Numbered from the stretch's first letter, positions 40,318 through 64,000 are shown. The stretch: DNA of 64,000 nucleotides from Terriglobia bacterium (GCA_963664115.2 CAXWPJ010000002.1:704001-768000); one strand, 5' to 3'. Program-made: numbers and translations. Notes: generated by a model from the letters alone, not told the origin.

Positions 40318-40533
40318 TCACGGCAGCGGCACCCGTTCCCTCAGTGCGTCAAACCAGTTCAGAACGATGTTGATCTGCTGGCGTTCGGCGTCCCTGGCAA
40401 ACTCTTCCGGTAGCGTCTTAATCGCCACCTCACGACCCAGCTTCGTGTCATGCGCACGCTACACCTCACCCATGCCACCCTTACCCAGGGCAGAGAGGAT
40501 CTCGTAGTGGCCGAGTTTTGCGCCGGAATCCAT
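40318..40533 (-). pseudogene. Empty kinase shell: Ser/Thr kinase N-terminus fused in frame directly to its C-terminal tail
   Basis: [50 protein letters not shown] joined to QQINIVLNWFDALRERVPLP*. Confidence 0.9.
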
Positions 40534-40631
40534 GATTTCGTATGTGGCCGAGTTGCGCCGCGAAATTCTGGTAAGTCTATCTACATGGGAGGCTTATTGG
40601 CAAGGCAAGGGTCAATTCTAGAATCTTGGTC

Positions 40632-40719
40632 AATTCTCAATGTTCGAGAAGATGATTTCTCAGGACTTGACCTCGAAAATCAGGGGACCGGCACCCGTTC
40701 CTTCAGTTCTTCAAACCAG
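40632..40719. repeat. Repeat R plus kinase tail (WFEELKERVPVP*, minus strand)
   Basis: AATTCTCAATGTTCGAGAAGATGATTTCTCAGGACTTGACCTCGAAAATCA followed by the tail. Confidence 0.9.
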
Positions 40720-40985
40720 ACTTCATGAGTGCGGCTCACCCCGAATGATGAAAATAAGCATTTTCGCGCTCCCGATACTGCGGAAGAGGGCCCGAAACGC
40801 CTGGACTGATCCTAAGGGACTTACGCCATATTTTCGTAACAGTTCTGGACGAATTTGATCCCCTTGGATGAAATCGCTATACCCTGACCCCACTTTCCAT
40901 ACGAATGCGCTCTGATATCGACTATGCACTCATGACGCCACCATTTACTTCATTACGTCGGCAGTTGTGCCGGTATACTCCGCGC

Positions 40986-41798
40986 ATGATGAATCTCGCC
41001 CTCATTACCGTCTTCACCGCCCTGGCGATTCTCCTTTGCGCAGGATTCCTACACCTGCTTCCTCGTCTGGGCGGTTTCGGGCGCCGCATCTCCGAGTCAA
41101 TGTGCCGCGCCCCGATGCTCGACGTGCTGATCACCTACTTCGGCATAGCCCCACTCGCCGTCGGTCCCATCGTCGGAGGCTGGATCGGGCTGGCCGGCGG
41201 CATCTTCGGTCAGATCAGCGCGGTGCTGATTTGGTCCCTCCTGCACAGCGCGGCCAATCCCCGCGTGCGCCGCGGTCCTCGCATCCACAGGACACTCAAC
41301 CAGATCGTCGGCCCCTGGCGAAATTACACGGCCCTCTGGCTGACGGCGCTGATGGTGCCGATGTTCTGGACCGTGCGTATGATCGAGATCTTTCTCTATC
41401 CTTTGATCCGCGGTCTCGTGCGCTTCCCGAAGTACGACCAAGGCACTTGGGTCTGCGTATCGCGCCAGAAGTTCGACGGCCTCATCAGCCACGACCTGAT
41501 CTGGTGCCTTTACTGCGACTGGATGACCGGTGTCTGGTCGCTCGGCTCGGAGATACTGCGCAACGTCGAATCATTCTGGTGCCCCATCCGATTCTCCAGC
41601 CACGAGAAGTGCGCCAACTGCCAGGTCGACTTTCCCGACGTCGCCGGCGCATGGGTTTCCGCCGACGGAACGATGACCCAGGTGACCGAGGTCCTCAACC
41701 GCAAGTACGATGGCACAACCGATGGCGCCAACTCATGGTTCGGTCACCCGACCAGACTGACAGGCAACGGCGACCCCTCCACGAAACGGGAGTGCTGA
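40986..41798 (+). CDS. Hypothetical membrane protein (cargo)
   Basis: Several TM segments and Cys-rich WCLYCDW and FWCPI motifs; GC-rich coding. Confidence 0.75.
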   Translation: MMNLALITVFTALAILLCAGFLHLLPRLGGFGRRISESMCRAPMLDVLITYFGIAPLAVGPIVGGWIGLAGGIFGQISAVLIWSLLHSAANPRVRRGPRIHRTLNQIVGPWRNYTALWLTALMVPMFWTVRMIEIFLYPLIRGLVRFPKYDQGTWVCVSRQKFDGLISHDLIWCLYCDWMTGVWSLGSEILRNVESFWCPIRFSSHEKCANCQVDFPDVAGAWVSADGTMTQVTEVLNRKYDGTTDGANSWFGHPTRLTGNGDPSTKREC

Positions 41799-42018
41799 CG
41801 CCAGGCCCATCATCGCAGACCCGCTCCCGTCTCAACTCCCCATCGACCTGCAGTTCCGCTCAATCATGAAGTCTGAAAACCTACTTTATCCATAGCTCCA
41901 CCATTGCGGCTTCACACCGGCCGCGCCTTTCAAATTCTGTTATCGAAATTGTCGCGGTAGAAACCGATCGGCAGGTCCTGCGACATTGTGCGCCGCCCCA
42001 CTTCCGATCAACACTAGA

Positions 42019-42104
42019 GATTTCTCAGGACTTGACCTCGAAAATCAGGGCACCGGCACCCGCTCGCGCAGCTCTTGGAACCAGTTCAGGACTATGTTGA
42101 TTTG
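42019..42104. repeat. Partial R plus kinase tail (QINIVLNWFQELRERVPVP*)
   Basis: GATTTCTCAGGACTTGACCTCGAAAATCA followed by the tail. Confidence 0.88.
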
Positions 42105-42296
42105 GCTCGACGCAGGATCAAGAACCTTAGGGCTGGAGTGGTATAACTTGAACGCCGTCTCTTAGCAAAACAGTGCAGTGTGGAAGTAAGGCTGACCAAC
42201 GCCCTCTCAATGACATCTCTCTCCTGTTCCGACACCGACGCTTCTCAGCTTGGCGTACCGGGATGGAACGCCCTTAGTAGACACGACTTTAGTTCC

Positions 42297-42348
42297 TGGA
42301 CGTGAGGTTGCAATCGAGACCCTTCCCGAAGAGTTCGCCAAGGATGCA
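42297..42348 (+). pseudogene. Inverted internal kinase fragment
   Basis: GREVAIETLPEEFAKDA on the plus strand, opposite to all other kinase pieces. Confidence 0.7.
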
Positions 42349-43851
42349 TCGTTAATTACCAACTATCTTCCTGTGTGTCACTTCAGCACGTCACTCTTTT
42401 CAGCCTCCTCGATGTATCGCTGCACATCTTCTTCGAGGAGCAGACGTTCGGACATCAACTGACGTGCGACATCTGTGACAGCCTGGACGTAGCCACCGTG
42501 AGTTCCGTATCGTTCCTCCAAGGACAAACGCGGGTCACCAGCCCCCAATCGCTCGGCCTCGGTCTTCGCAAAGGGAATGCTCTGGCCAGCCCCCTCGCAT
42601 CCGTCGTTGAGCCCCAAACCCTCACGGCGCAAAGCCCAGCCCGTTGTCGTTGCCAGCGGTGCTGCCACAGGTGGCAGCCGGATACCCGCAATTTCGTTCC
42701 CATCCTGATCCGTCTTAGCGACGAAGGATGGATAGGTCGGCCTATCGGCAAACGAGGGTGGGTATTTCGTTATGATTCCTTCGTCAAACGACGGGCCGAA
42801 GTCGAACAGGTAGCGAGTGGTGATAAGACCCGTATAGGTGACACCCGGAATGTTCGGGAATCCCAATGCGGCCTGGGGCACTAGTCCGGTCATTCTCGTC
42901 GATTGGGGCTCCGAGAACACCGCCGTATCATCCGACACTCTTGGTACGCGACTGTCAGGTGGTGCGAGGTCCTCCGTAACCCACTGATCGAGAGCTACGA
43001 ACAGGGCTCGCAGGGCTGGCCCCGGATCGGTCGGGTTGCGGGGCTGTTGACACAAGCCTAGACCTTCAGCTCCTCCCCCATGTTGCATCCCGGCGATGAG
43101 ATAGAACCGAACGTGGTCAGGGTCTGGCAGATCGTTCCCCTCAGTGTCGGTATGCAGCAACGATCCGGCTTTAACCCAATACTCGTTGGCCGAGTTGACC
43201 TCAAACGCTTTGGGACAGGTATTTGTTGCCAGACAACGTTCGGCGCGACCGCCCTTCTTGCCAGACACTGGATCTTCGATCACTGGATAGGCGAATGGGA
43301 AGATTCCCTCCGGGTACAAATGATTCTGGCGATTGTGTTCCGTTCGGGCCGTCTGTGCAAACCGGTAGTTGATGGCCACACCGCTACCTCCGGCCACCCA
43401 GTTCTCTATACCGTCTATGACGCGGCGCCCGGACTCGTCTTCGTTGAACCCAAGCGTCTGGAAATCATTCAGGTAGCGCCCCGGCTGCGAGCGCGCCCAT
43501 GCAAAAGTGTGCTGCACGTCCCCTGCGAGAGGGTTCGGATTGCCAAAGTTGTCCTCCGAGGCATACCGCAGGAAAGATACGAAATCCCGTGTGGCTGCCA
43601 GTCCCAGTCCTGCCACTAGCGGGTCTTTCGCAATGTAGGCAAATTCGTAGATGTAGCCCTGCGCGAGTGGGGTACCAGCCGGCAGTAGACGAATGGTCTG
43701 CTCATCGACGTATTCCCAGTCGCTTCGAGGAACGCTCATTGGCTTATCGTTGAGGAACTGTCTTACTGTGAGCGTCGCCTGCGTCTTGTCCAGTGTGCTC
43801 GCTGCGTAGGCGAGCCGGGACGTCATGGTAGAGGCATCGCTGACACTGATG

Positions 43852-45236
43852 GAGTTATAACCGAATCTGGTGTTTGAGGGATTGAATAAGAGCGGCGTAT
43901 CTGGTTGATTTGTTGTGACAAAACTTCAAAGCAACCATAGGAGATACGCCACTGTGAGCAAGAGTAACGTGAATGGACCGGAAGGTCGAGAAACGATTGA
44001 GGATCCAGTAACAGAACTACTACGAGTTGGGGCACAGCAACTGATCCAACGCGCAGTGGAAGCCGAATTGGCAGAGCTGCTATCCCAGCACGGTGGCCGG
44101 CGAACTGAGACAGGAAACGCCGGGGTGGTACGCAACGGTTATCTGCCGGAACGCGAACTGCAGACGGGATTGGGTCCGGTAACAGTCCAAATCCCGAAGG
44201 TCCGTGCCAAGACGGGCGAAGCTGTGACGTTCCGATCGGCCCTGGTACCACCGTACATTCGGAAGACGAAGTCGCTGGAAGCAGCGGTGCCGTGGTTGTA
44301 TTTGAAAGGCGTTTCCAGCGGCGAGATGGGTGAGGCCCTAAAAGTTCTTGTCGGTCCCCAGGCGCAGGGTCTGTCGGCGAGCACGGTATCGCGGTTGAAA
44401 CAGGTTTGGGGCGAACAGTACCGCCTCGGATGCGAGGAGCGTTTGGATGCAGATCGCTGGGTCTATGTCTGGGCCGACGGCATCTACAGCGGACTTCGGG
44501 CGGAACAAACCAAGTTGTGTGCATTGGTCGTGATCGGCGTGAATGAACGCGGAGAGAAGCGTTTCCTGGCGATCGAAGACGGTGTACGGGAATCGACACA
44601 GAGTTGGCGCGAGGTCTTGTTGAAGCTGAAGTCCCGTGGGATGAATGTTCCGAAGTTGGCCATCGGTGACGGTGCGATGGGGTTCTGGGCCGCACTGGAG
44701 GAAATCTATCCCGAGACACGTCAACAACGTTGCTGGATGCACAAAGTCATGAACGTCCTCAACTGCCTGCCCAAGTCGGTCCAGGCGAAGGCGAAACAGG
44801 CCCTGCACTCGATCTGGCAGGCCGAGACGAAGGCAGACGCCGAGAAGGCATTCGACTTGTTCATTGAAACCTATGAACCGAAGTATCCGAAAGCCACACT
44901 CTGCCTGCAGAAAGACAGAGAGGAACTGCTGGCCTTTTACGACTTTCCGGCCAAGCACTGGCAGAGCATCAGAACGACGAATCCCATTGAGTCGACCTTT
45001 GCCACCATTCGACACCGAACGAAGCGATCCAGAGGTTGCCTGACACGGGATGGCATGCTGCACATGATGTTCAAACTGGGCCAGTGCGCTGAGAACAATT
45101 GGCGACGATTACGAGGATTCGATGATCTGAGCAAGGTAATCATCGGAGTGAAATTCAACGATGGTGTCGAAGCGACACAAGTCGATCAGGCCGCCGCTTG
45201 AATCAATCTCCTAAACACCACTTTTGACAATAACTC
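43852..45236 (+). mobile_element. IS256 family insertion sequence
   Basis: Inverted repeats GAGTTATaaccgAAtcTGGTGTTT and GAGTTATtgtcaAAagTGGTGTTT; 9-bp target duplication ACACTGATG at 43843-43851 and 45237-45245. Confidence 0.95.
43915..45201 (+). CDS. IS256 family transposase
   Basis: RNGY, WADG, IGDG, QRCWMHK and RTTNPIES motifs; the true start may be GTG 43954. Confidence 0.95.
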   Translation: MTKLQSNHRRYATVSKSNVNGPEGRETIEDPVTELLRVGAQQLIQRAVEAELAELLSQHGGRRTETGNAGVVRNGYLPERELQTGLGPVTVQIPKVRAKTGEAVTFRSALVPPYIRKTKSLEAAVPWLYLKGVSSGEMGEALKVLVGPQAQGLSASTVSRLKQVWGEQYRLGCEERLDADRWVYVWADGIYSGLRAEQTKLCALVVIGVNERGEKRFLAIEDGVRESTQSWREVLLKLKSRGMNVPKLAIGDGAMGFWAALEEIYPETRQQRCWMHKVMNVLNCLPKSVQAKAKQALHSIWQAETKADAEKAFDLFIETYEPKYPKATLCLQKDREELLAFYDFPAKHWQSIRTTNPIESTFATIRHRTKRSRGCLTRDGMLHMMFKLGQCAENNWRRLRGFDDLSKVIIGVKFNDGVEATQVDQAAA

Positions 45237-45960
45237 ACACTGATGTACTCGTACGAGGATCCCGTGATTGAGGAACCGTCAGCGTCACGCGCTACTGGCA
45301 CCGTGATTGTCAGGCGGTCGTCACCGGGAGCGGTAGAAGTGTCCCAACCGCCCCACACCAGCGTGTAGCCACGCTGCATGAGGAATCCCTCGCCCGCATC
45401 GGTGGCTGTCGTCGGATCGTTCGTTTCAGGACTGTTGTTAAGCCCCGAAAATCGCTTTCTGCCTCGATTGTTCACTTCCATGAAAAGCTTGTGACTGCCT
45501 TGCCGCAAATCTACGGGCTTCAGGATGTAGACATCGATCGAGTACTCGACCATGCCGTTCGCGTTCCGCGGCGCAAACTCTATATCTGTAATGACTGCAT
45601 TACGCGGATCGGTGGGGTCCACCTCGCCGTAGGCCACGCCTCGCAGCTTCTCGTACGGGCCAACGGCGCCAAACCTTTGGCCTTCAAATGTTGGCGATTC
45701 CACGCTGGTAATCTCTATGCGCACGATGTGTGCTTGAACAGAACTCACGCTGATCACCGTGATCCAAACCAACACCAAAAAACTCACAGCCCCTCTCCGA
45801 TGAGTGCCTGAAGATCCGTCACCTGCAATCAGCCTCGTGAGCATGGTTCCTCCCTCCCGGTAGCGTGCACCGGGGTTTCCTTATGCGAGTCCGACGTCAA
45901 TTTCATCAGCACAGATGTTTCTGCACTGTGGATCCAGATAAGAATAGTCTTGTCTGAACC

Positions 45961-46021
45961 ATCCCATCCTTACCCAAGAGCAAGGCATCTCGTAATGGCC
46001 GAGTTGAGTTCTGGATTTCAT
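45961..46021 (-). pseudogene. Degenerate kinase N-terminal stub
   Basis: MKSRTQLGHYE followed, after a frameshift, by LLGKDGM. Confidence 0.7.
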
Positions 46022-46115
46022 TATTTAATGTGCACCGAAACGAGCCGTGAAAATCTCGGTAAAGAATACTAAGGGAGGAAGTTAGGTGCTATTAAATTCT
46101 CAAACATTAAATTCT

Positions 46116-46205
46116 AAAATCCTGACAAACGACCTTCTCGGACTGTTAGAAAAGGTCCTAAAAACGGGGTTCTCAAGGTCCGAGAAGATGATTTCTCGGG
46201 ACTTA
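46116..46205. repeat. Inverted pair of R copies
   Basis: 46116-46152 resembles the reverse complement of R; 46169-46205 is a forward R. Confidence 0.75.
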
Positions 46206-46231
46206 AGAATGGTGAGATCACTGAGAGAGGC

Positions 46232-46405: not shown

Positions 46406-46451
46406 GTGTAGAACCCCCGTTTTAGATCCAATTTGTTATTCTGATTGCACT

Positions 46452-47034: not shown

Positions 47035-47325
47035 AATTCTCAATGTCCGCGAAGATGATTTATCAGGACTTGACCTCGAAAATCAGGGCACTGGCACCCG
47101 TTCCTTGAGTTCTTCAAACCTCTTCGAACCAGGTCTAGAGAGAGACGGTTACTGAATGTTCTGGTCGAGCGGTGCTCCGCTCTGAGAAAAGATGGTGGGG
47201 TTTGTTGGATGCCAGTTATCCGCTGCAAGGACGATACAGGACTTGACCTCGAAAATCAGGGACTGGCACCCGTTCCTTGAGTTCTTCAAACCTCTTCGAA
47301 CCAGGTCTAGAGAGAGACGGTTACC
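47035..47325. repeat. Two tandem R plus kinase-tail units
   Basis: CAGGACTTGACCTCGAAAATCAGGG..TGGCACCCGTTCCTTGAGTTCTTCAAACCTCTTCGAACCAGGTCTAGAGAGAGACGGTTAC occurs twice (about 47064-47152 and 47237-47324). Confidence 0.9.
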
Positions 47326-47685: not shown

Positions 47686-49248
47686 TTAGGCCCCGCCCTC
47701 CAGCGCAGCCTGTTGCTGCATTGCAGCCGGTCCGACGATCCGCTCAAAATCGGCATTCAGCCCCGGCTGACCGTGAATGGGGACATGCGTCGTAACGTCC
47801 AAATTCAGCCGCCTAATGTTGTTATACAACGCAACCGCGTTGGCGCCGACATTTGCTGGTGGCTGTGCACCGGCAGGCGGCGGACTCCAGAGATCCGCGT
47901 TAATCAGAATCTGCTCTTCCGGCAAATAGGCGATCAGCATATCTGCCGCGTGATTGAGATTTTGCACGTTAAAGAGAAGAAGCGTGCGATCTCCATCACT
48001 GATGAAATGCCGGTCCGTGACGGTTTCCAGCGCGACCGGTCCGGGCCCAGTGGTGGCGAGCGGATTCCGGGATAGCGTGTCGGGACTTAAGGTCCGTATC
48101 TGCGACGCAAAGACCGCGTCCCTAAAGAAATCCTCGTTGCTTTCATGCGTAACCACGGTCACGCCGTGAGCGACATAGGTCCGCGCACCGCCTAGATGGT
48201 CCCAATGGTGATGGGTAGTGACTAGATAGCGGATGGCTTTACCCGGAATAAGCCTTTTAATTTCGGCAATCACGGGGAGTGAGCGCGCTTCATTCTGCGG
48301 AGCGTCGACGACGGTGACAAAATCATCGAACTCAATCGCCACGCTATTATGCGAACCACCAGCCATGAGCCACACGCCGTCGGCAACTTCCTGCGCTGCT
48401 ACATTGACCTGTGGCTCCGGCGCGTAGCGTACGCCGTCAGGAACCGTCAGGGCGGCGCCGGCGACATTAGCACTTGCTTCACCTACTTCAAGATTTAGCC
48501 AGTTCATTCCCGGCCGGGCCGTCAACAGATGATCGCCACGGTGGCCGTGAAACAGGAACGGAAACATTATTCCATTGCCGATGTCCTGCCATTCCGCATA
48601 GCGGATCTCTATCTGCATATCGCCCATAACAGGATTAGGAATCTGCGTGATAAGGCGCTCCATCAAGTTTTCGTCGTTGAATTCGCCCGAAACGCGGTAA
48701 CCCATGGTCGTAAATGCGACGACCTTTAAAGTGCGATCCTCGGAGGCCACGTAACGGTCTACGACGGTTACATCGTCGGCTGCCAGCGCCGATTTGATAA
48801 ATCCATGCGGGCTGATTGCGATCATGAATTTGCCAAGCTCCGCAGTTGAAGTGGCTTGCGCAGTGGGTTCTCCGTCGTTGTTCAGCGTCCAGGCATAGTC
48901 GCCGCTTATGAAACCCAAATTCCGCCTTTCGCCGATAATGGGTGATCTGCCGCCGCCGCGCGCGGGATAGTCGCCCTGAACGCGAACAAATTCTTCCCGC
49001 GACGAACCGGAAGAATAATCAATGGTCATGTCGTAGCTCTGCAAGACATGGCGCGGCCAGTCTTCGCCGTCGGCAAAATTCTGTCCCACCGCGCCCATCC
49101 AGCCCGAGCCCGAATATTGGACCGAATTTACCGAACTCGCGCCGATGGCGTTATCCGCCGCTTCCAAAAAGCTTGCTGCATCCTGAGCAGCTGCCGGCCC
49201 GGCCATCAAAGCCGAAGCAACCAGCCATATCCCTAGTTTGTTTCTCAT
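47686..49248 (-). CDS. Secreted MBL-fold metallo-hydrolase (cargo)
   Basis: Signal peptide; SHNS, THHHWDHLGG, HA.DM, AD and PIHG motifs. Confidence 0.88.
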   Translation of the reverse strand: MRNKLGIWLVASALMAGPAAAQDAASFLEAADNAIGASSVNSVQYSGSGWMGAVGQNFADGEDWPRHVLQSYDMTIDYSSGSSREEFVRVQGDYPARGGGRSPIIGERRNLGFISGDYAWTLNNDGEPTAQATSTAELGKFMIAISPHGFIKSALAADDVTVVDRYVASEDRTLKVVAFTTMGYRVSGEFNDENLMERLITQIPNPVMGDMQIEIRYAEWQDIGNGIMFPFLFHGHRGDHLLTARPGMNWLNLEVGEASANVAGAALTVPDGVRYAPEPQVNVAAQEVADGVWLMAGGSHNSVAIEFDDFVTVVDAPQNEARSLPVIAEIKRLIPGKAIRYLVTTHHHWDHLGGARTYVAHGVTVVTHESNEDFFRDAVFASQIRTLSPDTLSRNPLATTGPGPVALETVTDRHFISDGDRTLLLFNVQNLNHAADMLIAYLPEEQILINADLWSPPPAGAQPPANVGANAVALYNNIRRLNLDVTTHVPIHGQPGLNADFERIVGPAAMQQQAALEGGA

Positions 49249-49400: not shown

Positions 49401-49616
49401 TCACGTCATTCCTAGATTGCACGAGCCCTTGCCCGCCTCCCGCAGTCGCTGAGCCTGCTCGCGGTCAAAGATTCGCCGAGGCCGTCCAGAGGGTTTGCCT
49501 TCCTTCCTGGCACGTTCCAACCTGTCGGTGGCGCGGTAGGCCTCGCCCACACCCCCTTTACCGAGTGGGCCGGTGATCTCGTAGGGACCGAGTTTTGTGC
49601 CTCTCGCAAGGGCCAT
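49401..49616 (-). pseudogene. Kinase N-terminal stub fused to a resolvase/invertase-like C-terminal fragment
   Basis: MALARGTKLGPYEITGPLGKGGVGEAYRATD joined to RLERARKEGKPSGRPRR. Confidence 0.75.
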
Positions 49617-49909
49617 GAACTCTCTACCTCACTACTGTCGCTTGTAAACTGAAAAAGCTGGAGAAAGTCTATAGAACGAACGGGTTGGAAGCAACGATTG
49701 GAATCAGCAGGATTCTCAACGTCCGACAAGATGATCTATGAAAGGGGATGTCAAGAGAAACAGCTCCCCGATGGCCGGCCAGACGGACACTTTTGTCGTG
49801 ACAGCCAGCCCCTCTACCGTTATGTGAAGCCCTGGTTCCGGCAATCCGGAGCGAAATCGTACATCTTTAAGACGGTCGATTCAGAAACTGAACAGCATAT
49901 GGGACGGCA

Positions 49910-50045
49910 TGTGCCGACCATGGATCTATCTGAGCCTCGAAGGCTATCGCTGTTTCAGGTCGTGCGAGGGGGGATAGAGATTTAAAAGTGTCCTCTGGAC
50001 GTATCCAGGGACCACATCTTGTGCAGATCCTCACCCTCGATCCTC
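49910..50045 (-). ncRNA. Putative bridge/seek RNA of the IS110 element
   Basis: Two stem/internal-loop/hairpin modules whose loop strands match the target (ACAAGAT, TAAATC) and the donor junction (ACAGCGAT, ATAGATC). Boundaries are approximate. Confidence 0.7.
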
Positions 50046-50105
50046 AGTTGTTCCGACTCCGTCTAACGACTCAGTACGGCTCTACCGGTCACGGATCGAA
50101 ACGGC

Positions 50106-53397: not shown

Positions 53398-53552
53398 GAG
53401 ACGAGATCCACAGATCCTTTTACATCGTAAACAGATCAAACAGACAACGCTGGCTCGACGCAGGATCGAGAACCTTGTAACTGGATTGGTCTGACTTGAA
53501 AACCGTCTCTTAGCAAAACGGCCTTTTTGTCCGAATTATTCTGACGACGTAC

Positions 53553-53789
53553 ACTCGAAACCATGGATTGCCGCTATGCTATGTTGGGATGATTTAAAGA
53601 AGCGAGTAATCTGGCTTCACGTTCAAATCGCGCTAAACGATCAGCGTCTCTCGCAAACTCTTCAGGGAGAGTCTTGATGGCAACTTCACGACCGAGCTTC
53701 GTATCCTTCGCACGCCACACTTCTCCCATTCCACCCTTGCCCAGGAGTGTGCTGATCTCGTAGTGACCGAGTTTGGTGCCGGGTTCCAT
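53553..53789 (-). pseudogene. Ser/Thr kinase N-lobe stub
   Basis: [39 protein letters not shown]...LNHPNIA, then a 5-bp duplication (CTATG) before AIHGFE; no HRD or DFG follows. Confidence 0.92.
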
Positions 53790-53861: not shown

Positions 53862-53968
53862 AATTCTCAACGTCCGACAAGATTTATCGGGACTTGACCT
53901 CGAAAATCAGGGAACCGGGACACGTTCCTTCAGTTCTTCAAACCAGTTTTGAACGATGTTGATCTGCC
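53862..53968. repeat. Repeat R plus kinase tail (RQINIVQNWFEELKERVPVP*)
   Basis: AATTCTCAACGTCCGACAAGATTTATCGGGACTTGACCTCGAAAATCA followed by the tail. Confidence 0.92.
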
Positions 53969-54155: not shown

Positions 54156-55664
54156 CTAAAGGCTTCCATCCTTCACAATCGCCTTCGTCGGCGTCGGACT
54201 CCCACGATGAGGATGATACCCGCAACTCCGGCGACTAACCCGACCGGGCAACCAGAACCTTCGGTTCTCCACAAGCGGAGGCACTTCTCCGAAGTAAACG
54301 TAGGCCCGTCCGGTGTTGCCGGGTCCCTCCAGGGCATCGCCATCGCTTTCTCTTGCACCCACGACTACGTTGGCTCGGCCGTCCGCCGAAAAGTCTCCAG
54401 CCGAACCAACCGCGTACCCGAACGAGTCGCCTGGAGCTTCGCCGAAGAAGGTCTCGTCGGCGCGTGCTGCAGCAATGAAGCCTTCGGGGCGATTAACGCC
54501 GGCCCCGCCGTAGTAAATATAGGCAGCGCCACCCGGAGGCACACTTCGAGCCCCAATTATCAAGTCATCGATGCCGTCACTGTCGACGTCGCCAGCTCCG
54601 GCGACCGAGTTGCCGAAGGCATCGTTGTCGTCCGAACCGATAAAGATCGCATCAGCGTCGACGGCAGGGTTTTCCAGCTTGGGAGGGCCATAAAAAAGAT
54701 AGACGCGCCCGGAACGGTCGCCCGCATCGCGAAAGACTGCGGGGTTGTGGGCGGCGCCGACGAGAACGTCCGCAATGCCGTTGTTGTCGACGTCGCCGGG
54801 TGATGCCACCGCATGTCCGAACATGTCTATCGGCCCCTCGCCGGTGAACACGTAGTCTGCGGCCGCGGCGGCTATGTTACCGATAAACTGAGGGCCACCT
54901 CGAAAGATCAAAGCCTGTCCCTCGGCATTCGGTCCGGCTCCCGGGCTGCCCACGAGGACGTCGTCAGAACCGTCACCGTCGACATCACCCGCGGGTGCCA
55001 CCGTTGTACCGAACAACCCCGGCCCGACCAGTTTCACATCGGCGTCCCCGGATTCCAGGTTACCCCGGAGCAGATCGTCATCCTTTCCGCCGAAGAAGAC
55101 CAGCACGCCTTCGCCGTTCGATCCGATAATGATGTCTGCAAAGTCATCGCCGTTCACTGAGCCGGCAGAAGACACAGCTCGACCGAATCCAGCGAAGTCG
55201 TTTCCCGTCACAATTACGTCCGCCGCCCCAGCCTGGATCCGCCCGGCGAGTCGCTCATTCCCGACCCCACCATAGAACAAGTAAGCTCGGTACGGAGGTG
55301 CATTGGCAAAAGTACCGATCAGAACTTCGTCGAATCCGTCGCTGTTCATGTCGCCTGCGGATGCGACGGAAAATCCGAACGCCGTAGCCTCTGGTCCGAT
55401 GAAGACGGCGTCGGCATCAGCAGCCGACAGGTGCGGCGCGCCGGGAACGATGCGCCGACCGTAGAAGAGGTAGACGCGCCCTGAGTTCGGGGCGTCGTCG
55501 TCATTTCCGTAGGCACCGATCAGCAAGTCGTCGACCCCATCACCGTCGAAATCGGCGGCGGCGACAGCATGGCCGAACAGATCACGATCGTTCTCGCCGG
55601 TGATGATGAAGTTCTGGGCGAACGCCGAGCCGCCCACCAAAGCGGCCATAAACACGAGAAACAT
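54156..55664 (-). CDS. FG-GAP/integrin-alpha repeat beta-propeller protein (cargo)
   Basis: About seven FG..V..AGD.DGDG.DD.L.GA repeats; signal peptide. Confidence 0.9.
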   Translation of the reverse strand: MFLVFMAALVGGSAFAQNFIITGENDRDLFGHAVAAADFDGDGVDDLLIGAYGNDDDAPNSGRVYLFYGRRIVPGAPHLSAADADAVFIGPEATAFGFSVASAGDMNSDGFDEVLIGTFANAPPYRAYLFYGGVGNERLAGRIQAGAADVIVTGNDFAGFGRAVSSAGSVNGDDFADIIIGSNGEGVLVFFGGKDDDLLRGNLESGDADVKLVGPGLFGTTVAPAGDVDGDGSDDVLVGSPGAGPNAEGQALIFRGGPQFIGNIAAAAADYVFTGEGPIDMFGHAVASPGDVDNNGIADVLVGAAHNPAVFRDAGDRSGRVYLFYGPPKLENPAVDADAIFIGSDDNDAFGNSVAGAGDVDSDGIDDLIIGARSVPPGGAAYIYYGGAGVNRPEGFIAAARADETFFGEAPGDSFGYAVGSAGDFSADGRANVVVGARESDGDALEGPGNTGRAYVYFGEVPPLVENRRFWLPGRVSRRSCGYHPHRGSPTPTKAIVKDGSL

Positions 55665-56229
55665 GGGGCCTCCTCTGAGTAAAGCTCCGGTAAACCGGAC
55701 CACTGTTATCCGTCCCGATTGCCAGGGCTCCAGACCATCCGTTCTGAACTTCTTTATTTGATTGGTGCCGTAACCAGCGGTGCGTGAAATTAAGCCAAAT
55801 CTCCAGGAAATGCAAGGATTGAACAGTACCCTGAAAACCTCTCTACTGTCTGAATCGCAGAGACACGGACAGGCGCAATTGACGCCACCCCTCCGTTACT
55901 TCTCCACCTACGTCTTCTCCGTAACCTCCCGAAAGCACTTCGGGCACTTCGTGGGTTCTGGACAGAACTTTACGGTTTCGACACTTTGTCAAGAAAGGCA
56001 TCGGGGGTGCTCCAATCACACAGTTGATTCCGTTAACTTTCTCTTTTGGCCGTGGATTTGCAACGAGCCTTTGTGGGTCTTCGAGCGCAGAGCGATCTGA
56101 GAAGCGCAACCCGAACCTATGACGGATACCGAGGGGTTGTCATGAGTCTTCTGCGAGTAGCAAAGGCGCCGGCCGGCACGACACACCGCCAAGGTAGGCT
56201 GCAAACATTTGTGCGCTTATCAAGAGAAC

Positions 56230-57675
56230 CTACGGTGGAGAACGGCGATGCTGGACGTCTCCTCCGTTCGCAAGTTTCGATTTGGCCAAAACGATCAACT
56301 CTTTGAGCCCTTTTCCAAAGATTTGCTTCGCGAACATTCGTAAGCGGAACCGCGTGGATTCTGAGAGAGCGGGAAGCAGGTCTGCGATCCGCACCTCAAA
56401 AACGTCACCCGTCTGGCAGCATCGAATGGCGGTTGCATCGTTCCCATCGCAATCTATCGGCAGCTCCAGTGCAAAGACTAGCTCCAGTTCGGCCTTGGCC
56501 GGTTCCGAGAACTGATATTTTACGCGGACGATGTGTGTTTCCTCTGGGCCGGTTGAGCGCATATTAGATTCTCCAGGCTCATAAGGCATGGAACCGGCGG
56601 AGGCGCGGACGCTGAATTGCGGCCCCTTCTTGTACTCCTGCACGAGCCTGTCCATTTCATGATGAAGTGCCATCAGCAGTCGAAGACCCGCTTCATTGAC
56701 CCGGTCAGGTGTGTGGCGGCCATGGCGCACATCGGTCAGGTAGAGACCCTTGAGATCGTTCAACAGATCCCCGACCTCGGGGGCCAAGGCTTCAGCGAAA
56801 CTGTCTCCAACCAGCTCGACAGCATCGATGGCCCGCTCAAAGACGAAATCGACGAAAGGCTGGTGCGGGCCGCTATTGGCGACGTGCAGACAGGCTAAAT
56901 ATTCCTTTCGCCTGTCCATCAGAATCATCAGGGGGATCAAGGCAGCTCGATAGGTGTAAAAAGATGCAAGAGCGCGGGCAACCCGGCCGTTGCCTCCTGC
57001 GAACGGATGAATCCACATCAGGCTGTGATGAGCATAGGCGGCCTGTAGAATCGGGTGTGCTGCGAGAAAACGCTTACTGTGGAGCTCGTCACAAAGCCTG
57101 TGCATTTCAGCGGACGCCTCATCAACCGGAACGTATACGCGGACACCGTTTGTTGTGACGTGATTCGGATGGTGCTTGTACTCACCTAAAGGAAATCGTT
57201 GATCCTGCCAGCCCAAATCTGTGAGTACCCGGCAAGTCTCCTGGCCGGCACAAAGCTCCTGGTGTAATTTGCGCACCAGGGTTTCTGCTAAAGGGACCGC
57301 TTCAGTCACCAGTTCGAGCAGGTAGTCGTAGCCTCGGAGCTGCGAGTCGATCAGGGCTCGCGTCTTCTCGGATTTCTCGTTCAATCTTGCTTCCCAACCG
57401 GCCGCATGCATGGCAACAGTAATGGTGAAGTCGCGATCAACCTCGTAGAGTCCCTCGACGGCTCCAGTATCAATAGCCGTTGCCCGTTTGACGATGTCCC
57501 GCGACCGCCCGAGCAGCTCCGGAGACTGGTTCTCCAATTCCCTCAGTTTCGCCGTATATCGATCCCAGCGGGTCAGATCAACGAAACACCCCACCCACTT
57601 GTCAAACGTGGATACCGGCTCGTACAAGGCGTCGAGTTTGTGAAGATCTTCCATCGTGCCCTTATCCCTTCCCAA
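56230..57675 (-). CDS. Fic family protein (cargo)
   Basis: HPFAGGNGRVAR motif and an N-terminal TGAVEG inhibitory-type motif. Confidence 0.88.
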   Translation of the reverse strand: MGRDKGTMEDLHKLDALYEPVSTFDKWVGCFVDLTRWDRYTAKLRELENQSPELLGRSRDIVKRATAIDTGAVEGLYEVDRDFTITVAMHAAGWEARLNEKSEKTRALIDSQLRGYDYLLELVTEAVPLAETLVRKLHQELCAGQETCRVLTDLGWQDQRFPLGEYKHHPNHVTTNGVRVYVPVDEASAEMHRLCDELHSKRFLAAHPILQAAYAHHSLMWIHPFAGGNGRVARALASFYTYRAALIPLMILMDRRKEYLACLHVANSGPHQPFVDFVFERAIDAVELVGDSFAEALAPEVGDLLNDLKGLYLTDVRHGRHTPDRVNEAGLRLLMALHHEMDRLVQEYKKGPQFSVRASAGSMPYEPGESNMRSTGPEETHIVRVKYQFSEPAKAELELVFALELPIDCDGNDATAIRCCQTGDVFEVRIADLLPALSESTRFRLRMFAKQIFGKGLKELIVLAKSKLANGGDVQHRRSPP

Positions 57676-57993: not shown

Positions 57994-58942
57994 CTAGTAA
58001 TTAGCTGGCATGTCGCATTGCCCAAAGGCTGTCCAGAAAACCTGTGAATCCTCATCCCCTTCCTCAGGAAACTGCTCAACGAGAGTGCGCAAGTCGAGCA
58101 AGGTTTCAGGGGGTCTAGGTGTTAGCCACATCCCGAGTGTCTTATAGTTCCCGCTCGAAGCACGTGGAACATCTATAGCAGCCATGTTGATCTTCGTGTG
58201 ATGCTTCCGGTTGAAATACCCACAAATCTTGCCGTGTAATTGGACTGCGTAGTTGAAGTCACGGTGTTCTGAACTCGCAAGGTCCACCTTACTGCCGTGA
58301 AGCAACAGATTCCTAACACCCTCTCCGTATTTTAGAAGCCTGTCGAACAATTCGTCGTCTTGGACTATTTCCTGACGGATGTAATCCTTGTCCGTACTTC
58401 GCCCACGGCGAGTTGGTGATTGACCAGCTATGGCCTCCAGCGCGCTAATCAGCATCACCAACCGGGTATAGTACGTGGCTGCGTTGGTCTCTTCGCGCAG
58501 GTACCGAAACACATCCCCCTTCTCGTCATAAGTTTCCAAAGCCTCAAGCGATTCACGTTCTTCTTCACGGAAGCCCAAGGATACTGGCCTTCGCTCTGCA
58601 TAAAAGCGGAAGAAGAACGCACCTTCTGGATTCCCATTCTCTCTCTGAATGAACAAAGATTCGTAGTCAGCGCTCGTGTGACACTGCGAAACGAATGCGA
58701 TTTTGTCAACAATCGGGAGTAGTTCGGCACGAAACGCATTGATCGCTTCCTGCGCAGCTAAGGCTTGGACCGTCTTGCGGGCTATCCAACTAGCAGCGGT
58801 GCCGTGGTTGTATTTGAAAGGCTCCCACCGGGCGGTCTCCTGGATTGATCTGCCATGGCCTGAACACAAAGCCGTGGAAGGTGAACTGTTCCCAAAGATT
58901 TGAGATTGTGCTGATTCGGTGTTCGATAACGTAATCGTTCAT
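57994..58942 (-). pseudogene. HEPN-like (RX4H) protein interrupted by a 31-nt IS256 fragment
   Basis: SALEA..G and VRNLLLHG motifs; removing 58792-58822 gives a continuous 305-aa ORF from ATG 58942. Confidence 0.65.
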
Positions 58943-59935: not shown

Positions 59936-59974
59936 AATCTCAATGTCCGAGAAGATGATTTCTCAGGACTTGAC
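59936..59974. repeat. Repeat R
   Basis: TCTCAATGTCCGAGAAGATGATTTCTCAGGACTTGAC. Confidence 0.9.
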
Positions 59975-60031
59975 AGTCACTTTTCCCAGTAGCCGACTCG
60001 TTGGCGTCAGAACTAACGGCCTTCGAGCACC

Positions 60032-60373
60032 TCAGTTGGCGCTCGTGCGACTCAACCGAAGCTCTACCGGTAGACCGTCTCCCCATCCGTACTTTTCCCT
60101 GGCCAATTGGCGGACTTCCGCGCACAACTCGCCTTCCTGGTTGGGATCAAGCACACGGCCCGTTGCTTCCCTCCGTAGCGCACCCAGCCTGATCGTCACT
60201 GTGGAATTTTCCAGAATGTTCTTGACCCAGTTGGCCTTGTAACCATGTTCGGCCAGAACGTACAGTCGCCCGGCACGTTCGACAAACCAGATTTCGATTT
60301 CGCGTGCTTGTGCAGTTTTGCGACCAACGGTAGTCAGGTACAAAAACTCTTCGTTGAAAGAACCGCCAGGCAT
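60032..60373 (-). CDS. Deazaflavin (F420)-dependent nitroreductase-like split-barrel protein (cargo)
   Basis: LTTVGRKT...R, NWVKNI..N..V and KYG motifs. Confidence 0.8.
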   Translation of the reverse strand: MPGGSFNEEFLYLTTVGRKTAQAREIEIWFVERAGRLYVLAEHGYKANWVKNILENSTVTIRLGALRREATGRVLDPNQEGELCAEVRQLAREKYGWGDGLPVELRLSRTSAN

Positions 60374-60510: not shown

Positions 60511-60691
60511 TCACCGCACCGGCATCTGTTCCTTCAGTTCTTCAAACCAGACTTCATGAGTGCGGCTCACCCCGAATGATGAAAATAAGCATTTTCGCGC
60601 TCTCGATACTGCGGAAGAGGGCCCGAAACGCCTGGACTGATCCTAAAGGACTTACGCCATATTTTCGTAACAGTTGAGGACGATGTTGATC
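60511..60691 (-). pseudogene. Kinase tail split by an inserted ~120-bp segment
   Basis: INIVLN at 60672-60691 and WFEELKEQMPVR* at 60511-60549; the insert is near-identical to 40720-40845. Confidence 0.8.
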
Positions 60692-60775
60692 CGGGACCGC
60701 CTCGCCCCACCGATGTCAGCTCTTTCAGCTGGAACAATCGTGATGAATTCTTCGCCGGCTGGGTGATGCCCACTT

Positions 60776-62338
60776 CTAACGAGCCGGATCACGGACTACG
60801 TTGCGCAGGTCCTCGTACGTTCCGACATCGCCATGAATGCCAACGATTGTTTGCACGTTCAAATTCAATGCCTCGATGCCTTCGAGGAGCTCGCGCGGCA
60901 ACTCGCCCGGCCGTATGCTCCCCCCCTCGCGAGGGCTGACATGGTCCGCCTCGATCAGAATGCGTTCTCCTGGAAGATAAATGATCTGGTAATCGTCCGC
61001 GTGCGATGTCGCATATGGGTAAATTTCAATTTGTCGGCTCCCGTCGGTCAGGATCTTCGGTTCCGTGATCCCTTCGACGACGGCTGCATCCCGGCTCTGT
61101 TCCAAACGCTCCGCCCGGATGGTGTGCGGTGCTCTGGCGATGCGCTCATAGTGTGCTGCACTGATCGCCGGCGCGACAATCGTTGCCCCCGCTTCCGTGT
61201 ATGTCCGTATGCCGCCTGAGTGATCGTTGTGGAAATGGGTTGGAATAACGTAGCGGATCGGCTTCGTTGGAAAGCGCTGTCTGATCGCCGCGAGAACGCT
61301 TTCTGAACGCTCTTCATAGAGCGGCGCCTCAACGACCACAAGATGGTCCTGAAACTCGATGAGCACGCTGTTGTGCGACGTTCCCCGGATATGAATGACG
61401 CCGTCGGCGAGCGGCACGAACTCCACCGGTATGTCCCTGCCAAAATCCAGGTAGCTGACATTCATCGCCAGACGGCGCAAGAGCCATTGCGAGGGGATCG
61501 GCTCTCCTTCGATGTCTTGACGCCGTAGGGCCTCAGGCACCAGGAACGTTTCGGGCGAGAGCTCAACATTGTGGCGCACGGACTGGAGGCGTTCGCTCTG
61601 CAGCAGTTGCCCGTTGATTTCATGTCGCAGGTCGAAAGGCACCATGATGCCATCCACAGACTGCCAGTCCGCGTAACGCAGGGTGTACCGGCTATCCCCG
61701 TAGATGGGGTCGTGTTCGAGGATGTCGACTTGTGTAAGGAGCTTAGTCCGGACATCCAGGTAGATTTGAAATTCCTCACCGTCGTTGTCAAAGCTCAGGA
61801 CGCGCTGTGGCAGCCCCTCCACTTCGGTATCGGGGAGCCGCGTCAGGCTCGCCCGTCCCAACGCCGTGAGCACGAGGGCATTGGCTGAACGCTGTTCTTC
61901 CCGTATGCGGCTCGCCAGTCGACCCGGATGTAAACGCGTCGTTTGAGAAGTTCCGCCTTCGATGCTTTCTTGCAGCAGCCCGTCGTCTCCATCAATAATT
62001 TCAATATAGCGAACAGGCACCTCCCTTGGATAAATCGTCCTGCCGTTCCACTCCAAGCGGAGTCGTGGGCTTGCAATCTCCCGAGTCAGCGTGTAGCGAA
62101 AATCTGCCACACGTCGAGCCTGGCCACCCGGACGCAATGCCTGCTCGGGCTCAAATTGCTGTCCCGAGCCTTCCAGCACTTGGTTTATCAGGGCGTGCAG
62201 TGCCTCTACTCCACCCATCGCATGTGCGGTCTCTTCCAATATCGCGGTGGCTTCCCCGTTTTGTGCCAGTGCCGGAATATTTGCTACTGAAAGAACCAAA
62301 AGTAGCAGGCTGAATCGAATCAATTTGCGCGTCCACAT
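60776..62338 (-). CDS. Secreted MBL-fold metallo-hydrolase (cargo), in frame with an upstream kinase stub
   Basis: SHNS, THFHNDHSGG, HADD and GIHG motifs; signal peptide from ATG 62338; same family as 47686-49248. Confidence 0.88.
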   Translation of the reverse strand: MWTRKLIRFSLLLLVLSVANIPALAQNGEATAILEETAHAMGGVEALHALINQVLEGSGQQFEPEQALRPGGQARRVADFRYTLTREIASPRLRLEWNGRTIYPREVPVRYIEIIDGDDGLLQESIEGGTSQTTRLHPGRLASRIREEQRSANALVLTALGRASLTRLPDTEVEGLPQRVLSFDNDGEEFQIYLDVRTKLLTQVDILEHDPIYGDSRYTLRYADWQSVDGIMVPFDLRHEINGQLLQSERLQSVRHNVELSPETFLVPEALRRQDIEGEPIPSQWLLRRLAMNVSYLDFGRDIPVEFVPLADGVIHIRGTSHNSVLIEFQDHLVVVEAPLYEERSESVLAAIRQRFPTKPIRYVIPTHFHNDHSGGIRTYTEAGATIVAPAISAAHYERIARAPHTIRAERLEQSRDAAVVEGITEPKILTDGSRQIEIYPYATSHADDYQIIYLPGERILIEADHVSPREGGSIRPGELPRELLEGIEALNLNVQTIVGIHGDVGTYEDLRNVVRDPAR

Positions 62339-62389
62339 AGCGTGTGCTCCCGGCCGCTGTTCGACCTGTGGAAGGCCAAGGAGAAACCG

Positions 62390-62452
62390 ACCTCCGCCTC
62401 TGCCCATGGCGGAAAGGATCTCGTAGTGGCCGAGTTTGGTGCCAGATTCCAT
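62390..62452 (-). pseudogene. Kinase N-terminal stub
   Basis: [21 protein letters not shown]. Confidence 0.85.
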
Positions 62453-62550
62453 GTTTAAAGTGTGCCGAAACGAAACGTGAAAAAGTTGGATAAATCTAAC
62501 TACAGGTGGGGGTTATAAGCAAGGAAGTTGTGAGCCCGCGTATCACGGTT

Positions 62551-62593
62551 AATTCTCAACGTCCGCGAAGATGATTTGTCAGGACTTGAACTC
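62551..62593. repeat. Repeat R
   Basis: AATTCTCAACGTCCGCGAAGATGATTTGTCAGGACTTGAACTC. Confidence 0.9.
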
Positions 62594-62891
62594 AAGAATT
62601 GCGGCAATAATGGGCCGAGGCCGACTGAAAACGCTTAGGACACTCCCTGAGCACCCCCCTAGAATCGCTTGACTCGAATCGTGTCCACGAATGATCGTGG
62701 ATGCCGTCCCACCATTCGTATTGAGCAAGGATGGCCCTAGCCGCAAGACGCGGCAGCGAATGGACAAGTTGACCACCCATGGAATGGATTGATACGTTTG
62801 CTGCGGAGGTTCTCGACAGCGACGACTCCTTATTGATTGACTTCGTGCCCGTGAAGCCTAGCTGACTAACAATTTAAAACGGAGAGAGCCC

Positions 62892-63182
62892 GTGGCGACT
62901 TATGTGAGCTTGTTCAACTTTACTGACGAGGGACTCCGCACAATCCAAGAAACAACACAACGCTTTCAAGGATCAGAGGAAATCTGCAAGAAACTTGGCG
63001 TGAAGATCAAGGATCTTTACTACACGAATGGACAATACGATGGAATCGCAATCATGGAGGGGGATGAGGAAAGTGTGAGCGCGGCGGCTCTGGCTATTGG
63101 CGCGCTCGGCAATACACGAACCGTTACCACTCGTGCCTTTACTGTCGACGAAATGAAAAAGATCACGTCGAAAATGCCATAA
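62892..63182 (+). CDS. GYD domain protein (cargo)
   Basis: Y..L..FT..G, YYT.GQYD and G..RT.T.RAF motifs; RBS GGAG. Confidence 0.88.
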   Translation: MATYVSLFNFTDEGLRTIQETTQRFQGSEEICKKLGVKIKDLYYTNGQYDGIAIMEGDEESVSAAALAIGALGNTRTVTTRAFTVDEMKKITSKMP

Positions 63183-63317
63183 CCTTTCGGCGACATGTCG
63201 GCAGCATCGCATCGCGCCGCCTCGATTGCGACTCGCCCCACCGCCTCGACTAAGTTGGCGGTTATTGGGGGATGACTCGACGGACTCGGTTGTTTCTGCC
63301 CGTGCCGACTACGAACC

Positions 63318-63797
63318 CTACTGCACTGCGTCAAAGACCAGGACGTTGTTGGTCCCAGTTTCGGTCTGGGTCATTGTCTGGCCGTCTCTGGAGACTGCCA
63401 AGGTGATGCTTCCCCCCGGATTGTCCTCGGGCATGTGCTATATCGTATTCGCATTCGTGGCCCTGAACACCCGCAAGGTGGTCGATTGTGTTCCTCCGGT
63501 CAGAAACTGGGCCAAATTGACCTGTGAGTAGATGGGATAGCCCTCGGCGTCGAGCTTGAAAGCCGTGTGGATAAACCCCGGATTTCCGCTGGGGTCGACA
63601 TATATAAAGGTGAAAACGATGAATCCATCCTCACCTTCCTCGTACCTGTGAACGACACTCCGCAAACCTGGGCCAGGATCAAATGTGGATCGCTCTACAT
63701 TCATCTCCCACGTTCCAATAATCGGATGCGGGGACTGAGCTTGTGCAGCCAGGCAGACGAGTAGCAACAGACCGATGGCAATGAAACTGCGTTTCAT
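63318..63797 (-). pseudogene. Secreted lipocalin-like hypothetical protein with an internal TAG
   Basis: Signal peptide and IGTW..N...S.F. The frame continues past TAG 63438-63440 to VSRDGQTMT...NNVLVFD. Confidence 0.65.
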
Positions 63798-63915
63798 CAA
63801 AACCTCCTCGAAAGGCTTTACGCCGCTTGGATGTTTGGACACGCTGGGTTCTTCTGTACTGCGGCGGGACGGGCAAGTCAAAGGAAAAGCAGCGGACTGA
63901 AGCACGCACGCTCGT

Positions 63916-64000
63916 CTAGGGCACCGGCACCCGTTCCTTCAGTTCTTCAAACCAGTTCAGGACGATGTTGATTCCCTGTTGCGCGGTTTGTTGCACGAGT
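63916..64000 (-). CDS. Kinase C-terminal tail; the gene or stub continues beyond the window
   Basis: ...QQGINIVLNWFEELKERVPVP*. Confidence 0.8.
   Translation of the reverse strand, partial: LVQQTAQQGINIVLNWFEELKERVPVP

Follow-up and report, generated by a model that had tools for sequence, protein, structure and literature searches.

Unrelated genes between kinase gene remnants and a 40-bp dyad in a Terriglobia bacterium: a possible tyrosine-recombinase site and the blocks that move between its copies

Introduction

By what kind of site could unrelated genes come to lie between the two ends of a Ser/Thr kinase gene? The question was raised by a stretch of 64,000 nucleotides from a Terriglobia bacterium (GCA_963664115.2, CAXWPJ010000002.1:704001-768000; hereafter the window, G000:C2:704001-768000, G000 being the source genome of 4.89 Mb in 12 contigs, 97% complete). 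The first-pass annotation, made from the sequence alone, had described kinase gene starts (stubs), kinase gene ends (tails) and a palindromic repeat (R) around exchangeable cargo genes, and had proposed that the kinase ends and R act as homology arms or recombination sites of an integron-like array; a decayed tandem kinase array turned insertion hotspot was its alternative. The system is real, genome-wide and common to several species, and R can be read, with a slight preference, as a tyrosine-recombinase site of dif/lox type that probably originated beside a kinase gene with such sites on both flanks. The stubs and tails are probably what is left of that ancestral gene, carried along with the sites and serving as short homology arms besides. 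Relatives and other genomes compared with G000 are designated G001–G004, G007, G017, G102 and G143.

Results and Discussion

The R site

R is a 40-bp dyad composed of an arm ending in AA, a 6-bp spacer and an arm beginning with TT (consensus of 193 copies: ATTCTCAAnGTCCGAGAA GATGAT TTCTCAGGACTTGAGA); a weight matrix found 193 copies in G000 and none in 2.4 Mb of shuffled DNA, and 62 half sites were counted besides the full copies. The main spacer class, GATGAT, accounts for 142 of the 193; about 29 copies (R', spacers TGTCGT, GGTCGT and kin) form a minority class, which is inverted, immediately precedes the conserved kinase leader in 20 of the 29 and is often found 56–150 bp from a main-class R, as an inverted pair with it. 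Clusters of at least three hold 164 R sites (24 clusters, total span 461 kb, about 9% of the chromosome of 4.89 Mb), and main-class sites inside these arrays are co-oriented.

Invariant and free positions of the two arms sit in mirror places, and 11-bp arms around a 6-bp spacer with AA|TT as inner bases are a dif-type feature. The left 11-mer agrees with the XerC arm of the host dif at 7.1 of 11 positions on average, and the left 13-mer with the SloxM1 arm at a mean of 6.8 of 13 in the same inner register (arm sequence as printed in PMC3082901). Host dif is a single separate site at C2:108137 (C2:108110-108140); a second, degenerate copy was noticed at C2:111519, 3.4 kb from the first. Bare R sites are nearly as intact as kinase-flanked ones (median score 60 vs 63; GATGAT spacer in 55/66 vs 87/98). 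A further short repeat precedes some bare sites in G000 and G003 (window 59895-59922 and 63271-63296).

The proposal of an integron-like site was not upheld. The attC site is defined by its RYYYAAC ... GTTRRRY ends, which are lacking in the consensus of 193 copies. Covariation of stem positions 16/27 was not significant (p = 0.087, 116 sites) and one of three copies folded exceeded its shuffles; R therefore reads as a double-stranded protein site of dif/lox type and not as an attC hairpin. The T-run of an intrinsic terminator is absent after the dyad in both directions of the same consensus.

What moves

An R-bounded block of 1.29 kb was found at C2:264299-265588 and C6:43765-45054 of G000 (99.8% identical); further R-to-R blocks in new contexts measure 389 bp, 3.9 kb and 715 bp, the last being present in two copies in G000 and one in G001, and others are shared with G001–G003. 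Eight of 13 pairs R-bounded at both ends lay inside large contig duplications and were excluded from the evidence. For the comparison between species, 60 stretches (about 1.07 Mb) selected for R or kinase matches were used; a shared block was required to be 300 bp or longer, 91% or more identical and present in no more than two copies, ends at stretch edges were removed, and an end was counted at a feature if it lay within 40 bp of R, stub or tail. Among 131 block ends (G001–G003 and two G007 matches), 41 fell at a feature in both genomes and 29 in one, that is, 70/131 in at least one at a background of 6.3%; the 38 ends of G004 gave 4 in both, 12 in one and 22 in neither (background 7.8%). 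Identity of shared blocks was 91–99% vs 80–88% for genes flanking the arrays, and synteny of the latter was not found in any of the five relatives searched, where they are scattered; blocks at 94–99% are thus taken as recent transfers, and the comparison of orthologous loci suggested earlier failed because of this scatter.

The recurring blocks bear out the earlier claim that cargo is exchanged with junctions at R, stubs and tails. The stub–MBL–tail unit of the window is 97.9% identical in G002, with other neighbours and a different leader; here and in two G004 matches the shared block starts at the kinase ATG while the leaders differ. Judging from the unit shared with G002, kinase gene ends act as junctions too. 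The moving unit is mostly R-to-R, since 69 of 164 main-class sites have no kinase flank (tail 64, stub 16, both 15) and the stub starting a unit is not coupled to the tail ending it in G000 (16/14/47/65, p = 0.30); the stub...tail shell is not supported as the main unit of exchange. The four flank counts match expectation for independent tail and stub sides, and weak coupling was seen in the relatives (14/6/39/59, p = 0.025). Units measure 0.4–9 kb (median 2.4 kb) and often hold several genes in both orientations.

Position of the crossover

Within 18 groups of copies with a common left flank, R positions 1-4 differed in 2 groups, 9-10 in 8, 15-16 in 10 and 35-40 in 14; within 18 groups with a common right flank, positions 35-40 differed in 3, 27-28 in 12, 15-16 in 12 and 29-30 in 3, where random R pairs differ at 0.25. 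Elsewhere random pairs differ at 0.69–0.79 (1-4: 0.72; 35-40: 0.79). Positions 1-4 track the left flank and 35-40 the right one, hence exchange is placed inside R. The central 20 bp are linked to neither flank, which a plain two-strand exchange in the spacer cannot produce; single strand exchange finished by the host, later gene conversion, or purely homologous recombination can. At cer and mwr, an exchange begun by XerC is known to be completed by processes that do not need Xer (PMC2699498).

The last of these possibilities can be extended to the whole system: dispersed tail, R, leader and stub homologies would let RecA-type recombination or gene conversion shuffle cargo, and no dedicated enzyme would be involved. 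It is a doubtful explanation, for which the unlinked centre and the blocks that start at the ATG behind differing leaders speak; it leaves unexplained the mirror pattern and the fixed spacer classes, the good state of the 66 bare sites and the movement between species of blocks bounded by 40-bp sites alone.

Kinase remnants

A profile search of G000 gave 83 stubs and 167 tails, so that the genome-wide search with R, stub and tail that had been advised yielded copies of all three (R: 193), and R itself in 9 of 301 genomes. Four intact, open-frame, full-length kinase-propeller genes remain in G000, one with R 8 bp past its stop and R 101 bp ahead of its start. Stub lengths are 32 to 800 nt. The 46 stub-to-tail spans comprise 5 whole genes, 3 empty shells, 2 short spans and 36 others, 31 of which contain 0.9–3.9 kb. 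Within 8 kb of an R, 138/140 tails and 67/70 stubs are co-oriented with it; R adjoins a tail in 79/164 and a stub in 31/164 cases.

The conserved kinase ends noticed at first were confirmed on intact genes. Intact kinases were compared across five genomes (17 genes): identity at 4-fold synonymous positions is 0.72 over the first 15 codons, 0.76 over the last 14 and 0.29–0.37 in between. The gene ends, that is the first and last ~45 nt, are thus maintained as DNA. The explanation by homology alone gains from these values.

In the window, the five starts (40533, 46021, 49616, 53789, 62452) and nine stops were recovered on the minus strand, R or its inverted partner lies 71–100 bp from each ATG, and six tails abut R or a piece of R. 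By translation, none of the five stubs extends to HRD/DFG (longest about 236 nt), in agreement with the missing kinase core, and the hollowed kinases are real, as the in-frame 216-nt shell at 40318-40533 illustrates. Synonymous differences between tails account for part of their divergence, stops and frameshifts being found as well; the tail at 47256 stands in a duplication discussed below. Sites and remnants are as follows.

40633..40672 (+), R site, main class, spacer GATGAT
46113..46152 (−), R' site, spacer GGTCGT, inverted partner of R at 46169, directly 5' of the kinase leader
46169..46208 (+), R site; right flank recurs at C9:953435 with another left flank
47036..47075 (+), R site; left flank recurs at C9:952569
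49712..49735 (+), left half of R interrupted by IS110
51276..51291 (+), right half of R interrupted by IS110
53314..53353 (+), R site
53863..53898 (+), R with short spacer deletion, tail on one side, stub on the other
59936..59975 (+), bare R, neither tail nor stub adjoining
62552..62591 (+), R site, 100 bp upstream of the stub at 62452
42017..42037 (+), right half of R fused to the end of a recombinase + IS91-type element
3987..4026 (−), isolated degenerate R, outside the array
40318..40533 (−), empty kinase shell, 216 nt, first ~51 codons in frame with last ~21, one internal TAG
45959..46021 (−), kinase stub
49528..49616 (−), kinase stub
53554..53789 (−), kinase stub, about 72 codons, terminated by the end of a multi-copy insertion sequence (IS)
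62393..62452 (−), kinase stub in frame with an MBL-fold open reading frame (ORF)
40680..40719 (−), kinase tail, last 13 codons, abuts R
42045..42105 (−), kinase tail
47083..47125 (−), kinase tail, abuts R
47182..47324 (no strand), 143-bp duplication containing the tail at 47256, skipped by contigs of 4/4 runs
53361..53404 (−), kinase tail, abuts R
53907..53966 (−), kinase tail
60511..60694 (−), kinase tail interrupted by a ~130-bp insert also present at 40720-40861
63916..63974 (−), kinase tail without R
60671..62464 (−), stub–MBL hydrolase–tail unit, part also at C12:570376

Two side observations concern these remnants. First and last kinase codons form a short inverted repeat with an 8-nt match (CCGGCACC core; window starts 40533, 53789, stops 53907, 63916), which may be codon chance. 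The ~130-bp element inserts in the kinase tail between INIVLN and WFEE (window 40720-40861, 60551-60690), about ten copies being present in G000, G002 and G004.

Range and the R2 family

R was found in 9 of 301 genomes of the class, all within two genera of one family (301-genome search: G000 139 matches, G002 93, G003 51, G001 13, five others 1–5), and on six metagenome contigs; it was not found in viral contigs, nor in plasmids beyond three chance-level partial matches. The same layout was seen in G001–G004 and G007. Stub-and-tail arrays of G004 and G007 contain hardly any R and carry instead R2, a homologous site family (86 copies in the DNA searched, 0 in shuffles) which in G001, G004 and G007 resembles R in the asymmetry of its arms, falls into two spacer classes and likewise forms an inverted pair between tail and promoter; mixed R/R2 pairs occur in G000. 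Recurrence of the layout in this diverged family is a further fact that homology alone leaves unexplained.

Candidate enzymes

G000 contains 27 tyrosine-recombinase matches and 3 serine resolvases. A gene at C5:52189-53139 encodes a Xer-like protein of 316 aa. On either side of the gene an R' lies at a distance of about 90 bp, with a kinase stub farther out. The protein retains its catalytic motifs, and its PDB matches are XerA and XerD (best), XerH, IntI4 and Int, with no Cre among 10. Its family occurs on plasmids of Acidobacteria and Deinococcus. A dyad of the form AA-N6-TT lies within 300 bp of the gene at 6 of 20 family loci, G000 included (0.66 expected), 3 of 19 other loci reach p ≤ 0.033 with the matrix of R, and in G007 and G017 an R2 site adjoins the family gene. 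At two loci from a distant family the right arm is TTATGAGGACT, which matches the TTATCAGGACT variant of R at 10 of 11 positions. The gene stands (G000:C5:52060-53270) between two inverted R' of the same spacer, with arrays diverging on both sides; this piece is possibly an invertible segment or an array head.

The absence of IntI noted earlier holds for the window and not for the genome: an integron integrase (TIGR02249, 439 bits; C9:714590-715759) is present 195 kb from the nearest R. Co-oriented ORFs were seen downstream of it, and attC was not found by simple pattern within 15 kb of it. None of the 12 recombinases of G003 is an IntI. If a tyrosine recombinase acts at R, the 316-aa protein is put somewhat short of an even chance, host XerC/XerD come behind it as a possible alternative, and the integrases of IS91-type elements are an unlikely third.

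Cargo and mobile elements

Most of the cargo list given at first was confirmed by Pfam: two MBL-fold proteins, Abhydrolase_10, MmgE/PrpD, FG-GAP, Fic, F420-dependent reductase and GYD; the HEPN-like and membrane proteins have no Pfam or NCBIfam match. Three insertion sequences, IS1380-type at 38656-40188, IS256 at 43915-45201 and IS110 at 50106-51353, had been overlooked.

42378..45844 (−), alpha/beta hydrolase (Abhydrolase_10), interrupted by IS256; G002 homologue with its stub, 88-92%
40905..41798 (+), predicted membrane protein, family match none
47686..49248 (−), MBL-fold hydrolase (Pfam)
51589..53094 (+), MmgE/PrpD protein, bracketed by inverted degenerate dyads 51318-51341 and 53234-53257
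54156..55703 (−), FG-GAP repeat protein (Pfam)
56230..57675 (−), Fic-domain protein (Pfam)
57994..58869 (−), protein without family assignment, 28-bp piece at 58793 inside
60032..60373 (−), F420-dependent reductase family (Pfam)
62892..63182 (+), GYD-domain protein (Pfam)
38457..40313 (−), IS1380-type element, directly behind the tail at 40318, more than 70 genome matches
43852..45236 (+), IS256-type element, splits the hydrolase, 9-bp duplication
49736..51275 (−), IS110-family element within R spacer
41824..42016 (+), right end of a tyrosine-recombinase + IS91-transposase element, inserted at R spacer

Of 117 mechanically called ORFs of at least 250 aa that are located between co-oriented sites, 76 share the strand of the kinase (p = 0.002), as does the first ORF behind the stub in 43 of 59 cases; this strand bias fits use of the kinase promoter by the cargo.

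Multi-copy elements make up 21% of the arrays vs 8% of the genome, and five mobile-element families insert into R. One IS110 family lies within the R spacer in 7/7 genome copies; a second enters the arms beside positions 27-28, and relatives of it beside 15-16, both among the positions found scrambled. Ends of an IS30-like family (so named from domains and ends) lie within 8 bp of a site centre in 15 of 20 cases. Elements with integrase and IS91 transposase insert at the right spacer edge of R, R' and R2, from which it follows that tyrosine-recombinase-bearing elements use that position. Each of six identical copies in G000 (C1:92965, C1:107675, C2:196490, C12:35350, C12:158198, C12:487026) interrupts an R2-like site at G|TT, and the base next to the junction varies on both sides. 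A group II intron occupies three R copies; it was observed in the right arm at G000:C5:37622-39196 and at the identical insertion point twice in G002.

Catalysis by these elements was considered, whereby IS110 (RNA-guided), IS30-like or recombinase + IS91 elements would enter R as their target, move DNA between copies and leave. The insertion points just given speak for it. It is nevertheless improbable: the sites of most shared blocks are intact and both block ends free of IS scars, the IS91 transposase was not found in G003 despite 51 sites, targeting leaves the conservation of R unexplained, and attC and REP, which have enzymes of their own, are IS targets too (PMC11187229).

The earlier alternative, decayed tandem kinase arrays as insertion hotspot, here taken with R as a transcription-factor operator of the kinase promoter and the remainder as deletion and IS debris, is rated lower still. 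The place of R' upstream of the leader, the spread of stub lengths, the three empty shells and the share of multi-copy elements agree with it, and from the element load and the insertions into R, decay and insertion are real but secondary. An operator does not need a fixed, oriented spacer, R adjoins tails more often than stubs, and near-identical site-bounded blocks recur in different contexts and species.

Outside the array, a separate repeat family with internal palindromes was noticed in the window (three 200–300-bp intergenic copies, 8885-9086, 11725-11937 and 19610-19853, two direct and one inverted).

Assembly checks

The array of kinase remnants and R extends ~8.5 kb past the right end of the window. 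Short-read contigs (Logan) from 4 of 20 runs holding the window stretch (four studies, covering 44500-64000) cross stub–cargo and R junctions with 0–1 differing letters (48139-49716, 45209-46088, 61690-62446, 62482-63945, 53935-58871). Junctions bridged by independent contigs mean that the mosaic is not a misassembly of collapsed kinase paralogues, which the first-pass annotation had named as what would undo its picture. Such an artefact is hardly credible also in view of the same layout in five relatives and R on metagenome contigs; on its side stand contig-end duplications of 6–16 kb in the G000 assembly and three small pieces of the window missing from the contigs. These are the 143-bp duplication with the tail at 47256 (4/4 runs), the 28-bp piece at 58793 (4/4) and an IS256 scrap at 59225-59445 (3/4), all probably assembly artefact or strain-private. 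Contig joints skipping between R or stub copies (short side 21–54 letters, indistinguishable from other copies) were not used as evidence, nor was contig depth, which varies by unit (MmgE/PrpD unit nearly uncovered in 1/4 runs, no contig across). Two near-identical versions of one array region were observed in G000 (C6:1-46000 and C11:1-83000), with blocks rejoined at R sites and IS copies; they may represent a strain mixture or a recent rearrangement.

Weighing and proposed course of events

Several results weigh against R as a dif/lox-type recombinase site. Chief among them is the centre of R unlinked from both flanks. The right 11-mer agrees with the XerD arm of host dif at 5.1 of 11 on average, a site is lacking at 50 of the 167 tails, and 61 of 131 block ends lie at no R, stub or tail. 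Only XerC and XerD are common to G000, G002 and G003 at orthologue level (79–92% identical; the count covered all 12 recombinases of G003 and 19 of the 27 of G002). The 316-aa enzyme was not found in G002, G003, G004 and G143, with a 30-residue scrap only in G102, all five being relatives that bear arrays or sites, although G002 (93 sites) and G003 (51 sites) are site-rich, and 14 of 20 loci of its family have no dyad by the 300-bp test. That no dedicated recombinase common to all site-rich genomes was found also speaks for homology alone. Circles, a pair of empty and filled sites at an orthologous locus, and activity of the site: none was shown.

Under the dif/lox-type reading, which keeps its slight preference, the following course is suggested. 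Intact kinase-propeller genes have R-family sites at their borders, and in the spacer between genes the sites form an inverted pair; kinase interiors have been deleted or replaced, random-length ends being left beside the sites, and site-bounded blocks recur with new neighbours within the genome and across species. A candidate tyrosine recombinase would begin exchange at R, and host replication or branch migration would complete the Holliday junction, or gene conversion would act at a later time; either would account for the unlinked centre. Between partners that both retain a stub or tail, the interior would also be exchanged by ordinary homologous recombination. A putative kinase promoter behind the site would drive some of the cargo.

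A wider interpretation is offered tentatively: a kinase gene with recombinase sites of its own on both flanks may have multiplied and become a capture vector, its interior being replaced by unrelated genes while promoter, start and stop are kept, with cassette exchange genome-wide and across species by an undescribed Xer-like recombinase family and several spacer-defined compatibility groups, apart from integrons and dif modules.

To our knowledge, the origin of gene cassettes is unexplained in both integrons and dif modules. Here a founder (site-flanked kinase), intermediates (stubs of 32–800 nt, empty shells) and products (bare-site cassettes shared between species) occur side by side, so that cassette birth becomes traceable. 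If the interpretation is true, the system would show how new cassettes are born and provide a new recombinase/site pair with natural spacer classes usable as a tool. A 40-bp site hunted by five mobile-element families is, moreover, a test case for IS110 guide-RNA targeting.

Comparison with known systems

In the literature searched (subscription papers and most supplements lay outside it), a published description of this system was not found. REP/RAYT was considered: two Y1_Tnp genes in G000 have no R cluster, and a single degenerate R, situated behind a remnant that resembles a tail, is 300 bp away from one of these genes.

Neisseria dRS3/NIME and the silent-cassette loci mafB/fhaB (PMC1797815) resemble the R arrays in an abundant short dyad, an IS110-type target and gene fragments as exchange homology. 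The dRS3/NIME proposal there, site-started and RecA-finished exchange, is the nearest mechanism in print. NIME spacers are described in the same text as 19-214-bp and non-coding, whereas whole genes lie between the R copies; unlike in Neisseria cassettes, both ends of a signalling gene are kept here and the middle is replaced by unrelated cargo.

Cre-type lox sites (PMC3082901, PMC10250229) share with R the asymmetric dyad and a recombinase gene with sites about 100 bp away on both sides; a dyad less than 1 kb from the recombinase gene was found here too (R' about 90 bp off the 316-aa gene). The candidate enzyme is Xer-like, no Cre being among its 10 PDB matches, the arms of R are not fully linked to the flanks as crossover in the spacer only would have them, and lox sites are single, whereas R copies number about 190.

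Integrons and integrase-less attC clusters are co-oriented arrays of exchangeable accessory genes split by one repeated site, as are the R arrays. Insertion of IS110-family elements and a group II intron into the site and arrays far from any integrase are likewise common to both. IS1111 elements target attC (PMC11187229). Unlike attC, R has a fixed length of 40 bp, no attC ends and no hairpin covariation (p = 0.087; 1/3 folds), its units of 0.4–9 kb hold genes in both orientations, and no IntI stands at the head of the arrays, that of G000 being 195 kb from the nearest R.

The pdif/dif modules of Acinetobacter, including chromosomal dif-module islands (PMC12907356), share several features with the R arrays: genes between short dyads with a 6-bp spacer, chromosomal arrays, near-identical modules in different replicons, no enzyme in the module, IS hunting the sites, and inverted site pairs. 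Recurrence of one module in different contexts and the presence of host xerC and xerD were found here as well. Compared with that description, R is 40 bp long, its right arm is not of XerD type (5.1 of 11), its sites are mostly direct repeats instead of alternating C/D and D/C (main class co-oriented, inverted partners a minority of about 29). It differs further in the number of its copies, about 190 spread over 24 arrays, in its likely descent from a kinase gene and in a centre unlinked from the flanks. The R system works like Acinetobacter dif modules and integron arrays, and it fails membership of both.

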